Shown: in pieces, positions 6,801-10,006 of the stretch
Numbering within the stretch: the stretch's first letter is position 1
How the letters are laid out: each line of letters begins with the position of its first letter
Made by a program: the position numbers and the translations under genes
Notes under the pieces: model-generated
What the model saw: only the letters and a program-made list of their open reading frames with translations
The model's database searches: none
What the model was told of the DNA's origin: nothing
DNA from: a virus
Taxonomy: Duplodnaviria; Heunggongvirae; Uroviricota; Caudoviricetes
IMG/VR virus record: IMGVR_UViG_3300045988_018328
Reading direction: 5' to 3' (one strand)
DNA: 22,956 bases

Positions 6801-7259
6801 AGGGATGAACATTGCAGCCACATTAACCGGGTCTATCATTCCCATTGCTAAGCTTGAAATAGTACCAGCACCACCCATTTCAGATAGATATTCTCTATCT
6901 GTTCTTTGCTTATCGATTCGATGTTTAATTGCCATTGTTTCTTCATGCGAACCGGAGTTGATAAACGAATCTGCAAAATCTTCATAGCCTTTAATATCTG
7001 CTGCATCGTTATCAAATGGGTTATATCCTTCAACCCTGTCAAACTGACTGAAAGGAGCACTGGCAATAAAGCTACCCAGCGTGTTATCTATACGAAATGC
7101 TGCTTGTCTAGACCTTTGAACGCGTTGCTCACTGGTAAATGGGTTCACAGCAGAAAGCAAAGAAGGTGTTTCCATATAGAAATTACTGTCATCAGGTGCT
7201 GCTATTTGCTGAATATCCTCGCCAAGCAACTCTTTAGGATCCTGTTCATATATCGGCAT
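3870..7259 (-). CDS. Large internal virion / DNA-ejection protein (1129 aa; position and size analogous to T7 gp16)
   Basis: Last large gene of the structural operon. Contains Gly/Ala-rich hydrophobic segments and long coiled-coil-like charged regions. Start overlaps the stop of the upstream gene by 1 nt. Confidence 0.75.
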   Translation of the reverse strand: MPIYEQDPKELLGEDIQQIAAPDDSNFYMETPSLLSAVNPFTSEQRVQRSRQAAFRIDNTLGSFIASAPFSQFDRVEGYNPFDNDAADIKGYEDFADSFINSGSHEETMAIKHRIDKQRTDREYLSEMGGAGTISSLAMGMIDPVNVAAMFIPVGAVARGGSIAETAGRFALANAAGGGVSEAALQATQEARSPMESVSNVVVDALVGGILGAGAQLLAGPSAREAVVNSVGNHLRGMDSPQSIGAAQVFNTTLDQEQLAGLGLANKTLSVTPAGRLAQSPSLVSRQINQQLAENNYFFAKNDEGLATFTAVETKIKQYDAMLYKQMEATRDAYQQYSKSVSARGVKRMNFIDFNEAVGMAMRRGDQSDIPEVSQAAARIRPIFETTKARMQELGILPEDIDVVTAKSYLPRIYKFDKILSDRTEFRGRIANWIQGISAKGADKAGQRIEKINSLLKTAEESAPRADALASEIAEAEKWSGKKILLMEELDKRNKLISQETDTQARLTRIEKELAETSSEKLQARMMKESSDLKTLLDDIAQAKSELPVYQRHMELLDNPRKYRSELRRLQKRANSTTRLNASRERALKQMEPLSREEAEDAADEIVNKIIGAPSGLVPADIIPERLVGRAGFTKSRTLLIPDERIEDFLESDVNYIMESYLRQVAPEIELTAQFGRKDMGEQIRQVSEEYTRLIKEAKTPKRRAVLEKQREADIRDITAMRDRLLGTYGAPQDPRSFFVRAGRVARNINFLRLLGGMTVSAATDLMRPMMQHGLRKSLGPMVSMLKNMDSVKIATRDLREMAVGLDYVLSTRTKAIADLTDPYSRRSAAERGLNWMTQKFGNWTLMNQWNSALKSWSGMIVQSRILDAARQVSAGGTLSKSEMRKMAQVGINEDVLRRIGEQFGKHGEDMDGLLTGHSHLWDDRFAREIFQSAVLKDVDSVIVTPGVGDTPLFFSKEGWKMITQFKTFIFAQHNRVLVSGIQQGDAAFYLGALGTIALGSMVYMMKQKLSGRDIDYSWNNLVKEGIDRGGMLGWLSEPLNTVENISGGRFGLGAMFGAPPVSRFQSRNAIGALLGPTFDLGGDAATVANGVLNGEFDSQQTHAVRKMLPFQNLWAISPLLNKVEEQMK

Positions 7260-10006
7260 TATTTGCCCCCTGCGTATATATTGCTCGGAAGGTAATTGGC
7301 TGAACCATAACCGAATGGTTTGGTCAGATCTGGAGGAGTATATCCATCTTTATTGCTGAACTGCGGCAGCGGATTGCCTTCTCTCCGCACTCTAGCCTCA
7401 TCAACACGCTGTTGCTGGAACTGAATGGTTTGCCTGTACATTGGAGATGTCAGCTGATCCGGCTTGAAACGAACAGGGAGACCATTTTCTCCAATATAAT
7501 TTCTCGGTTCTATCGCTCCGTTTGCGTCAGGCTGTAAAACCATAACAGCATAACTCCTATCCCTTGCCGTAAGGCCATCAGAAACAAGTATTAAGTCCGT
7601 ATCACTGCGAGGACCGCCAAAGGATTTTGATTTAAGCTCGCGTTTTTCCTGCTCCCACTGCCCCTGTATCCAGTTACCAGCACCATTATTTACTCCGTAC
7701 AATGCCTCAGGTGCATACTTCATAACCTCTGCTTTGCCATTAACTGTAGAAACTCCCCAGGTGGTTCTGATCATGGCATTGGTCATTTTCTCAGCCTGTT
7801 CTGCATCGCCACCTGTCTGTACAAAGTTAGCATCGTAAATTGTCTGGTAATCTCGCTGATAGGCCGCATTTGATTTTCCTGGATCGGTAATATCCGGAGA
7901 CCACGAACCAAAGGAAGTCAGACTGCTGGCGTTATTTTGTGCAGCAGTTGCCCTCGCCGCGACATATTTTTTGTCTCGCATGGCAGTGGAAAGCATCTGT
8001 TTCATTCGGTCATCCTGTTGGAACACCTGGCTGTAAGCCATATCAACAGCCTTATCCTCCGGCACGCCAGCGCGGGAATAATCGTAAACCTTGCCGTAAA
8101 ATGCCATCGTACTTTTATCAAGTGTTGCCGCTGCCGCCGGATTATTATCGAATAACTGACCGTAGAATTTTGCCATCGGGACAACCAGCGCAGGATCTCT
8201 TGATGTTGCTCCACTGTTAAGCATTGTTTTAACCTGAGTTGGTATCATGCCGCTTTTAGTTGTGACGGTGACCAGTGTATTGATGCTCTGCGGATCAGAT
8301 ATGGAAAACGAAGGCGCGATATCCTGCGCGAAATAACGGTCTACCGCTGCCTGATTGTTTTTGTCGTTAGGGTCCAGCGGGAAGTTATTTTGCATTGAAG
8401 ACACGAACCTGTTTCTTCCCTGCTGAATCTCCCACTCCCTATCCATCTCTTTAAATTTGGCCTGCATTTTCTCCCAGCGTTGCTGGTTAGCTGCAAATCC
8501 AGGAGCATTTGGATCCTGTGGACGTAAACGTTCAAGAATGTCTTGTCGTCCTTCTGGAGTGAGGTCTTTAGCGGCACCAATGACACCTCCATATTGTATC
8601 TGCGCCTGCATATCCTTCCACTTCATAGCGCCAATGCGCGGACCATTGGCCCGGATAAAATCGTCCTCAGAAGGTAACTTCTCAGGTTTCAATCCTTCAT
8701 CAAGGGCTGAATATGCATCTTTAACTACGGTGCTAAGCTGGTCCGCATACTGCTGGCGGTACTGATTTCTCAGCTCATTAGCCTGCCTCAATGCCTGTAT
8801 TTGCATTTGAGGGCTCATAGCGTCAAATGCCGCATTGCCCGTATAACGCTTAGGTGAATCAAGGTTAGTTAGACCAAGGGCTGCCGAGATACCAGTTTCA
8901 AGCTGTTCGGTGCTATAAGGCATACTGCCATTTTCGTGTTTAATAATCCCAGCACATAAAGCAGCTAGTGTCTTTGGGTTAGAGATATCAAGCTGATCAT
9001 TCTCCCCAACACCAAGCTCACTACACAATGCCCTAATATAAGCATCAGTATTATTACCATCACTAGCCGGAGCATAGCGATTAACAATCTCGCTAACGGT
9101 GTCATAGCCTTGACGCTGGTAAGACAACATATTTTTACCCAACGCGCGGATTCCATGCTCAGGGGTAGCAAACGTTGCAAAACGTCCATCACTACCTATC
9201 TGACCTTCCCACGGGTTAGATTTGCTCGCTTCAATATTACCAGGGTTATTATTACGTAAACCACGAGCATCCAATGAATTACCATGTGATATTGCACGAC
9301 TCACACCATCAAGATCCCCTGGCTCTCCATTAACCTGAAGAAACTCGTTGTATTTTTGAGCGATATTTCCTATCCATGCTTGCTGCCCCATTTGTTCCTT
9401 GAGCTGAGTTTTCTGCTGAACACGCCACTCATCAGGAAGCCCATGCGCATCAGCGTATTGATCAATAGATTCAAATCGCTGCTTGGCTAAATCGACAAAT
9501 GCTTGGTTATCGCTATATAGCCCCGCAGACTGAGTGACAGCCAATGCATTTCCTGACAAATACGTTTGATCTTGGAATTGCTGAAACTGCCCAACTTCAT
9601 ATCGACGTGCCTGATTGTAATAAGACTGCATAGACTGCTGGAGTTGAAAGGATAATTTATTCCTTTCCTCACTTTCAGGAATTGAGCCTAATAATGCCTG
9701 AGCCCTTTCCTGCATATTTTTCATAACAGCGTCACTCTGACCAAGAGCGTTTTTACCCTGTTTAGAAATCAGCCCATTTTCAGGGTTGTTAATCTGGTCA
9801 TCTGCAAATTGGTTAAATTGCAGTAACGCCTCCTGGGCCATAGCAACATTCGCTTTCTGCCTAGCTTCACCATATGCCACCGCATACTGATCTGCGACAT
9901 TCGCCAGCACCTGACCTGCTTGAGGAACATCGAAGGTCTGAAAACCACCGGTTTGCACACCACGACTTTGCACCTGGCGTCCGGATGTAGTAGGAACAAC
10001 AGGCAT
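7259..10006 (-). CDS. Internal virion / ejection protein (915 aa; analogous in position to T7 gp15)
   Basis: Long ORF in structural-operon synteny. Contains a conserved-looking block ...GLRNNNPGNIEASKSNPWEGQIGSDGRFATFATPEHGIRALGKNMLSYQRQGYDTVSEIVNRYAP... Confidence 0.75.
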   Translation of the reverse strand: MPVVPTTSGRQVQSRGVQTGGFQTFDVPQAGQVLANVADQYAVAYGEARQKANVAMAQEALLQFNQFADDQINNPENGLISKQGKNALGQSDAVMKNMQERAQALLGSIPESEERNKLSFQLQQSMQSYYNQARRYEVGQFQQFQDQTYLSGNALAVTQSAGLYSDNQAFVDLAKQRFESIDQYADAHGLPDEWRVQQKTQLKEQMGQQAWIGNIAQKYNEFLQVNGEPGDLDGVSRAISHGNSLDARGLRNNNPGNIEASKSNPWEGQIGSDGRFATFATPEHGIRALGKNMLSYQRQGYDTVSEIVNRYAPASDGNNTDAYIRALCSELGVGENDQLDISNPKTLAALCAGIIKHENGSMPYSTEQLETGISAALGLTNLDSPKRYTGNAAFDAMSPQMQIQALRQANELRNQYRQQYADQLSTVVKDAYSALDEGLKPEKLPSEDDFIRANGPRIGAMKWKDMQAQIQYGGVIGAAKDLTPEGRQDILERLRPQDPNAPGFAANQQRWEKMQAKFKEMDREWEIQQGRNRFVSSMQNNFPLDPNDKNNQAAVDRYFAQDIAPSFSISDPQSINTLVTVTTKSGMIPTQVKTMLNSGATSRDPALVVPMAKFYGQLFDNNPAAAATLDKSTMAFYGKVYDYSRAGVPEDKAVDMAYSQVFQQDDRMKQMLSTAMRDKKYVAARATAAQNNASSLTSFGSWSPDITDPGKSNAAYQRDYQTIYDANFVQTGGDAEQAEKMTNAMIRTTWGVSTVNGKAEVMKYAPEALYGVNNGAGNWIQGQWEQEKRELKSKSFGGPRSDTDLILVSDGLTARDRSYAVMVLQPDANGAIEPRNYIGENGLPVRFKPDQLTSPMYRQTIQFQQQRVDEARVRREGNPLPQFSNKDGYTPPDLTKPFGYGSANYLPSNIYAGGK

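Follow-up and report, generated by a model that had tools for sequence, protein, structure and literature searches.

What is a conserved-looking block with the motif RNNNPGN doing in the middle of a protein that appears destined to leave the phage particle during infection? The question is raised by the 22,956 nucleotides (nt) of IMG/VR virus record IMGVR_UViG_3300045988_018328, a stretch of Caudoviricetes DNA referred to here as the window, whose minus strand encodes a protein of 915 amino acids (aa) holding this block. A first-pass annotation, made from the DNA letters and their open reading frames (ORFs), had taken the block for a discrete globular domain of an ejection protein (an internal virion protein), and perhaps for an enzymatic domain that penetrates the envelope. 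The homology, predicted fold, conservation and gene context described below bear out the first proposal and lend support to the second. They lead to the reading, held at a probability of roughly 0.85, that the 915-aa protein is the ejection protein at the gp15 or IVP-C position (IVP, internal virion protein) of an epsilon15-like podophage, and that its residues 247-381 form an Enc34-type glycosidase that would cut murein as the DNA enters.

The conserved block and its domain

The segment singled out, ARGLRNNNPGNI...NRYAP, translates to residues 247-313 and is, by homology, the front half of an Enc34-type (PHA02564) cell-wall-degrading domain of about 135 residues. A phmmer search against PDB sequences matched the region, far beyond chance, to 9vvp_L ('Gp29', 1295 aa, residues 3-150; expectation value (E) 3.9e-35) and to 7q47_A ('Endolysin'; E 2.8e-15, query residues 247-362). 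The AlphaFold2 (AF2) model of residues 226-400 has a mean predicted local distance difference test score (pLDDT) of 86.3, with values above 90 across residues 247-381, and is compact, mainly helical and similar to the alpha-lobe of lysozyme. When this confident model was compared with the PDB by Foldseek, the only significant fold match was again 7Q47 (probability 1.0, template modelling score (TM) 0.68-0.74, 34% identity). The domain does not have the extent first suggested, residues 230-330: the confident part of the model spans residues 247-381 and is preceded by a linker, residues 240-247, that is of low confidence in the full-length AF2 model. No Pfam or NCBIfam family matched the block, which is one half of what the first-pass annotation would have counted against its proposal and, taken by itself, would have misled; the domain and its conservation are seen through PHROGs, PDB sequences and homologues. 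In PHROGs, phrog_1044 matches the 915-aa protein over its full length (E=0), and the domain alone (residues ~243-395) aligns with parts of phrog_873, of phrog_2276 (tape measure protein) and of phrog_7182 ('tail injection transglycosylase'). In BFVD the domain model matches proteins, 185-1292 aa long, that are named 'virion protein', 'internal virion protein D' or 'tail-fiber/lysozyme'. When the window was scanned in six frames with a hidden Markov model (HMM) of the domain, the 915-aa ORF was the sole match.

The function suggested by these matches comes from two relatives that have been studied at the bench. The structure 7Q47 is the catalytic domain of ORF39, the endolysin of Hafnia phage Enc34, and belongs to the NCBI CDD family PHA02564, 'V virion protein'. 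In isolation this domain lyses E. coli, P. aeruginosa and H. alvei cells whose outer membrane has been permeabilised; its nearest named structural relative is the glycoside hydrolase family 73 (GH73) glucosaminidase TM0633, and those who solved it regard it as probably an N-acetylglucosaminidase of the GH73 kind (PMC8943055). M4Lys, from Salmonella phage BSPM4, has a 'virion protein domain' that degraded purified murein with the release of N-acetylglucosamine (GlcNAc) (PMC7143992). With the same domain family and the same signature of Glu, Tyr and an aromatic residue, the 915-aa protein is most likely a virion-associated peptidoglycan hydrolase, an activity assigned from homology. This identity would explain why the ejection proteins of the phage are without a lytic transglycosylase motif: as the first reading of the DNA had it, none is there, with SLT (PF01464) unmatched by Pfam in both the 915-aa protein and the neighbouring 1129-aa protein, and the ES, GLMQ and AYNxG motifs not seen in the 915-aa sequence. 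The block itself appears to be the muralytic domain, only of another family. Some differences from Enc34 are evident, as the domain here is internal to a structural protein of 915 aa that has no hydrophobic segment, has Tyr for Trp at position 311 and, in the AF2 model, has two four-residue strands (residues 269-272 and 276-279) before its first long helix, whereas Enc34 is described without beta elements.

The residues thought to do the work in Enc34 are Glu131, proposed as catalytic, together with Trp79 and Tyr95 (PMC8943055). In the phmmer alignment, E358, Y323 and Y311 of the 915-aa protein fall on 7q47 chain indices 132, 96 and 80, the chain index being the numbering of the Enc34 paper plus one throughout (132/96/80 = 131/95/79). 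So aligned, the Enc34 catalytic signature has all of its counterparts here, and position 311 is a conservative Trp-to-Tyr change. Conservation was measured on a MAFFT alignment of the query with 119 full-length homologues (120 sequences) and on a second alignment of the query with 57 diverse short homologues (58 members). Mean identity of the 119 homologues to the query is 0.82 over the block and 0.74 over residues 247-381, and is lower outside the domain (0.39 over residues 1-240 and 0.53 over residues 404-915), which makes residues 247-381 the best-conserved part of the protein. N252-N257 of the RNNNPGN motif and E358 are invariant in 120/120 full-length sequences, and Y323 is invariant both in these and in 58/58 of the diverse members, among which the RGxRNNNPGN, GIRA, (W/Y)AP, NT.AY and HENG motifs are invariant or at least 90% conserved. 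Column 311 of the full-length alignment holds W in 112 sequences and Y in 8, the query among the latter, and W, Y or F occupies it among the distant family members shown.

The remainder of the protein had been described as low-complexity, and this did not hold. Although Ala- and Gln-rich, it has a Shannon entropy of 3.4-3.9 bits in 40-aa windows, near the 3.7-4.0 bits of the domain, and is confidently modelled as long helices. The full-length AF2 model (mean pLDDT 80.6) consists of a helical N-module, the enzymatic domain and a helical C-module, with nearly everything outside the domain and the beta region at residues 750-850 being helix. The protein is without a transmembrane- or signal-like segment, as its Kyte-Doolittle hydropathy, averaged over 19 residues, peaks at 0.74. 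The N-module is common to phrog_36437 and phrog_992.

Gene context and proposed role

The window carries the structural module of an epsilon15-like temperate podophage, with a GP7-type capsid, Gp10-like and Bbp16 decoration proteins, portal and terminase. Its nearest relative is Escherichia phage EC.W1-9 (97% identity over 91% of the window), in which the counterpart of the 915-aa gene is annotated 'hypothetical protein'. The gene lies between homologues of gp14 (IVP-B) and gp16 (IVP-D), and its junction with the gp14-like gene reads TGATG. One-base TAATG or TGATG stop/start overlaps of this kind, at 7259, 10006, 10581, 11045 and 13516, join the tail and internal-virion genes and suggest translational coupling along the whole operon. 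The profile phrog_342 ('internal virion protein with endolysin domain') matches the 1129-aa gp16-like protein only from profile position 192, so this protein is without the enzymatic head; it also gave no Pfam muralytic match and no match to the domain HMM, and it has a single hydrophobic segment at residues 201-219. After 7Q47, the best PDB matches of the full-length 915-aa model in Foldseek were 9jyy_G, 7k5c_A, 6yt5_A and 7eyb_A, from T7 core and ejectosome entries, which we take from their lengths and entry titles to be gp15 chains. The 915-aa protein has no Pfam match, and the fold matches and synteny together are suggestive of a gp15 or IVP-C-like protein. The largely helical model also agrees with the build of IVP-C proteins, which are extensively alpha-helical and have ~700-900 aa.

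If so, the 915-aa protein would share the capsid core with the gp14-like and gp16-like proteins, in the number expected of an IVP-C protein (about 8 copies), and after adsorption would leave by way of the portal and tail to reach the periplasm. There the Enc34-type domain would cut murein glycan strands locally, with E358 acting as the general acid and Y323 and Y311 positioning the substrate, and once the murein was cut the ejection proteins could assemble the trans-envelope DNA channel. The least certain step is the bond cleaved, which by analogy with M4Lys and Enc34 is probably that between GlcNAc and N-acetylmuramic acid (MurNAc), i.e., GlcNAc-MurNAc, as would be expected of an N-acetylglucosaminidase as in GH73. 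The features concerned are collected in Table 1.

Table 1. Positions in the window of the 915-aa gene, its modules and predicted catalytic residues, and the neighbouring internal virion protein genes.
Feature	Position (nt)	Strand	Basis
Gene for 915-aa internal virion (ejection) protein, gp15 / IVP-C position	7259..10006	minus	ORF confirmed
Enc34-type (PHA02564, 'virion protein / structural protein P5') peptidoglycan hydrolase domain, predicted, aa 247-381	8864..9268	minus	phmmer, AF2, Foldseek, domain HMM
Block singled out in the first-pass annotation, aa 247-313, N-terminal half of the domain	9068..9268	minus	checked by translation
RNNNPGN signature motif, aa 251-257	9236..9256	minus	alignment
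Codon of E358, predicted catalytic glutamate (= Enc34 Glu131), motif KHENGS	8933..8935	minus	alignment with RHENGS of 7q47
Codon of Y323 (= Enc34 Tyr95)	9038..9040	minus	phmmer alignment
Codon of Y311 (= Enc34 Trp79)	9074..9076	minus	RYAP aligned with RWAP of 7q47
N-module, aa 1-240	9287..10006	minus	AF2: pLDDT <50 at aa 1-42, then long helices at 38-226
C-module, aa 392-876, mostly helical, small beta region at aa 750-850	7379..8833	minus	AF2 model
gp14-like internal virion protein, 191 aa, directly upstream	10006..10581	minus	Pfam T7_gp14 33.7 bits (cutoff 27), phrog_418 E 1e-72
gp13 / IVP-A-like internal virion protein, 154 aa	10581..11045	minus	phrog_308 E 1e-62; weak sub-cutoff Pfam Phage_T7_Gp13
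gp16 / IVP-D-like internal virion protein, 1129 aa	3870..7259	minus	phrog_342 E 2e-235

Several other features of the window deserve mention. A 273-aa ORF (3027-3848, minus) directly follows the gp16-like gene, in a place where one might look for a tail fibre or tailspike; its only match is phrog_6118 (function unknown), with none in Pfam. In EC.W1-9 the likely tailspike ('eliminase', with a pectate-lyase-like fold) is several kb further on. A tRNA-Arg gene (anticodon TCT; 19268-19344, plus) lies opposite the structural genes between the large terminase and portal genes, and tRNA-Arg is also present in the annotation of related O157 typing phages. Beyond the structural module, at 1414-2109 (plus), is the gene of a Bro-N domain protein (putative anti-repressor, Pfam E 2e-21), in a region that is 81% identical to EC.W1-9 versus 97.5% to TL-2011b, another mosaic joint.

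The site and the domain family in other phages

The gp37 protein of Escherichia phage TL-2011b (905 aa) is a full-length homologue in the same gene position (BLASTP E 4e-105, 29% identity), with a near-identical first 60 residues. At its residues ~232-345 the Enc34-type domain is replaced by an SLT domain (Pfam 30.2 bits, cutoff 21.3) that holds 'VESG', 'GKYQLMPGTG' and 'AYNWG', and the protein is annotated 'lytic transglycosylase' or 'endolysin'. At the nucleotide level the window and TL-2011b are 96-98% identical at 9810-21218 and unrelated at 3022-9810. The mosaic breakpoint, near nt 9810, falls around codon 65 of the 915-aa gene: over the first ~65 codons the two genes have ~96% nucleotide identity, and beyond them the two proteins are only ~29% identical. 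The replaced block of ~6.8 kb comprises the rest of this gene, the gene for the 1129-aa gp16-like protein and the 273-aa ORF.

A third state is found in Vibrio phages 22O28-1 (4056-6197) and CKB-S2 (644-2785), whose 713-aa scaffold homologues share the C-module with the 915-aa protein and TL-2011b gp37 and show a gap across the whole domain site. These two proteins have no match to SLT or any other muralytic Pfam family, though they are annotated '(putative) lytic transglycosylase', a label that looks inherited from domain-bearing relatives. Among homologous scaffolds, therefore, one site is seen in three states (Enc34-type, SLT and empty), of which the empty one is represented by two of the ~49 Vibrio-phage records matched and the SLT one by a single phage, TL-2011b. 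The best 120 full-length homologues listed are all of the Enc34 type, so no ratio of SLT to Enc34-type domains can be drawn from them.

In the epsilon15-type Salmonella phage VB_ST_E15 an ORF right after the gp14-like gene matches residues 1-496 only, at 45% identity, and the C-module is absent from this homologue; the N-module with the domain, on the one hand, and the C-module, on the other, therefore have different relatives. The ejection genes of VB_ST_E15 (8260-15462) are split into overlapping and partly annotated ORFs of 511, 491, 222 and 523 aa, which look like frameshift errors in the assembly, and because these reading frames are broken no clean gene-for-gene comparison with epsilon15 can be made. 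For the same reasons, the partial match and the broken frames, the label 'epsilon15 gp16 homologue' was dropped for the 915-aa protein.

As for the family at large, a domain profile search of 1.84 billion proteins returned 19,401 cluster representatives (clustering at 50% identity) with E<=1e-3, of which 13,647 reach E<=1e-10. The domain HMM was used to re-scan 142 of the 150 best profile matches (newly returned sequences) in a census of architectures, where 62 proteins were short and standalone (<=300 aa), 59 held the domain internally in a long protein, and 13 and 8 held it at the C-terminus and N-terminus, respectively. By tblastn the domain was found in 808 phage records, with 71% identity in epsilon15-type phages and ~50% in Kayfunavirus gp16, which GenBank labels 'internal virion protein with endolysin domain' or 'peptidoglycan lytic exotransglycosylase'. 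Further carriers include D3112/JBD26-like Pseudomonas phages ('structural protein P5'), chi-like endolysins (Enc34, BSPM4), the non-tailed Vibrio phage NO16 and jumbo phages. The metagenomic protein P0241 (762 aa) has four tandem Enc34-type copies, at residues 45-173, 233-372, 425-553 and 592-718, with no NNNPGN motif and one HE[NT]G only, and may represent a repeat-type form that derives from this fold but is not catalytic.

Comparison with better-known systems shows what is shared and what is not. The domain of Kayfunavirus gp16 (phage PE3-1, 1295 aa; 47% identity over 156 residues, E 3e-36), likewise in a podophage ejection protein, is at the extreme N-terminus of gp16 / IVP-D, the place of the T7 gp16 transglycosylase (PMC8954989), whereas in the 915-aa protein it lies inside the product of the preceding gene, at the gp15 position, and the gp16-like protein is without one. 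The Gp29 of PDB entry 9VVP would be Kayfunavirus gp16, judging by its equal length and near-identical aligned sequence to PE3-1 gp16; a literature search found no paper on 9VVP, and 'gp29' core proteins only from unrelated phages. The N-terminal lytic transglycosylase of T7 gp16 (GH23/SLT) has the same proposed role, that of an ejected protein cutting murein for a trans-envelope channel, but it is of another enzyme family (there is no SLT here) and has another carrier. The T7 activity is needed only with highly cross-linked murein (PMC8954989, citing Moak and Molineux 2000 and 2004), and by analogy, with the insert-free Vibrio homologues also in mind, the activity of the domain described here may matter only on such murein. 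A muralytic domain on a protein at the gp15 / IVP-C position has a precedent in the K1E / K1-5 gp35 proteins and the phiKMV family, a likeness drawn from the literature only: gp35 is gp15-like and bears the lysozyme activity that T7 has on gp16 (PMC8954989), and internal virion proteins 'variably host tail lysozyme domains' (PMC4819975). Finally, proteins of the 'structural protein P5' type (NO16 GP11 and those of D3112/JBD26-like phages) have the same domain, at 42-44% identity, but are short, single-domain proteins unfused to an ejection scaffold, some of them from non-tailed membrane-containing phages. NO16 GP11 was found in virions and has been proposed to act on murein at entry (PMC13552765).

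Alternative readings and meaning

A number of points weigh against the proposal that the 915-aa protein is a gp15-position ejection protein with a murein-cutting glycosidase. We know of no experiment on this protein or on a close homologue. Its likeness to the T7 gp15 fold is weak (E 3e-5 to 3e-3, probability 0.87-1.0, TM only 0.11-0.21), BLASTP against one Kayfunavirus gp15 gave no significant similarity, and scans with Pfam-A and NCBIfam, which are without a model for the domain, gave no meaningful match. Position 311 is Tyr, where Enc34 and most of the homologues have Trp. The M4Lys data also suggested an unexplained endopeptidase activity (PMC7143992), sugar ligands were not bound by the Enc34 structure (PMC8943055), and the existence of scaffolds without a muralytic insert means that the domain may be dispensable.

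The alternative that survives best keeps the role and changes the chemistry, so that the domain would be a lytic transglycosylase or muramidase acting on the MurNAc-GlcNAc bond, like the N-terminal domain of T7 gp16. The Enc34 fold is also similar to GH23 lytic transglycosylases (phiKZ gp144, MltC) with the same single catalytic Glu (PMC8943055), the domain occupies the site of the SLT domain of TL-2011b gp37, and the 'exotransglycosylase' label of the Kayfunavirus homologues points in the same direction. This chemistry is possible but unlikely, as GH73 TM0633 is nearest to Enc34 and mass spectrometry of M4Lys showed GlcNAc loss (PMC8943055, PMC7143992), and neither the SLT family nor its motifs were detected here.

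It is improbable that the domain is an inactive murein-binding or structural module, serving for example to anchor a periplasmic tunnel at the cell wall. The replacement of Enc34 Trp79 by Tyr, the scaffolds that lack the domain and the four degenerate tandem copies of P0241, mostly without NNNPGN and HENG, would all be compatible with such a module. Against it, the Glu, the Tyr and the groove signature (RNNNPGN, GIRAL, AP, HENG) are invariant or nearly so in the 120 full-length sequences, the change from Trp to Tyr leaves the side chain aromatic and is seen elsewhere in the family, and the equivalent site in TL-2011b holds a motif-complete SLT enzyme.

That the 915-aa protein is instead the lysis endolysin of the end of infection, as might be read from the 'endolysin' label and 'lysis' category of phrog_1044, the similar RefSeq name of the TL-2011b homologue and the family's true endolysins in the chi-like phages Enc34 and BSPM4, is very improbable and was rejected, because the gene is in a translationally coupled tail and internal-virion-protein operon, the product has 915 aa with the domain set between helical modules that are weakly gp15-like and no transmembrane or signal-like segment, and EC.W1-9 has a separate lysis cassette of holin (PF05449), GH19 endolysin (PF00182) and Rz-like DUF2514 genes ~11 kb away.

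With the 915-aa protein read as a virion-associated murein hydrolase, much of what it represents is already known: the domain family has been characterised structurally and biochemically, and PHROGs, GenBank annotations and a solved structure already record it in phage virion and ejection proteins. To this the 915-aa protein makes a modest addition, namely an unannotated internal member in the gp15-position protein of an epsilon15-like phage, the Trp-to-Tyr change at a groove position and the three-state site. The current understanding of podophage entry is unchanged by a domain that is real but ordinary, and the value of the finding is in annotation, as the records of EC.W1-9 and of hundreds of enterobacterial prophages name the gene product a 'hypothetical protein', and automatic pipelines, for which Pfam and NCBIfam have no model, miss the domain or mislabel it as a lysis endolysin. 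Enc34-type domains are also candidate enzybiotic modules, and the three-state site illustrates the exchange of cassettes among ejection proteins. A more speculative idea, which we consider doubtful, is that epsilon15-like and related podophages have a single insertion site, at residues ~240-395, in their gp15-position scaffold, where the choice of cassette tracks the murein chemistry or growth state of the host instead of being neutral mosaicism. If true, the site would be a small, swappable determinant of infection efficiency, and also a natural experiment showing when phages need muralytic enzymes in the virion.

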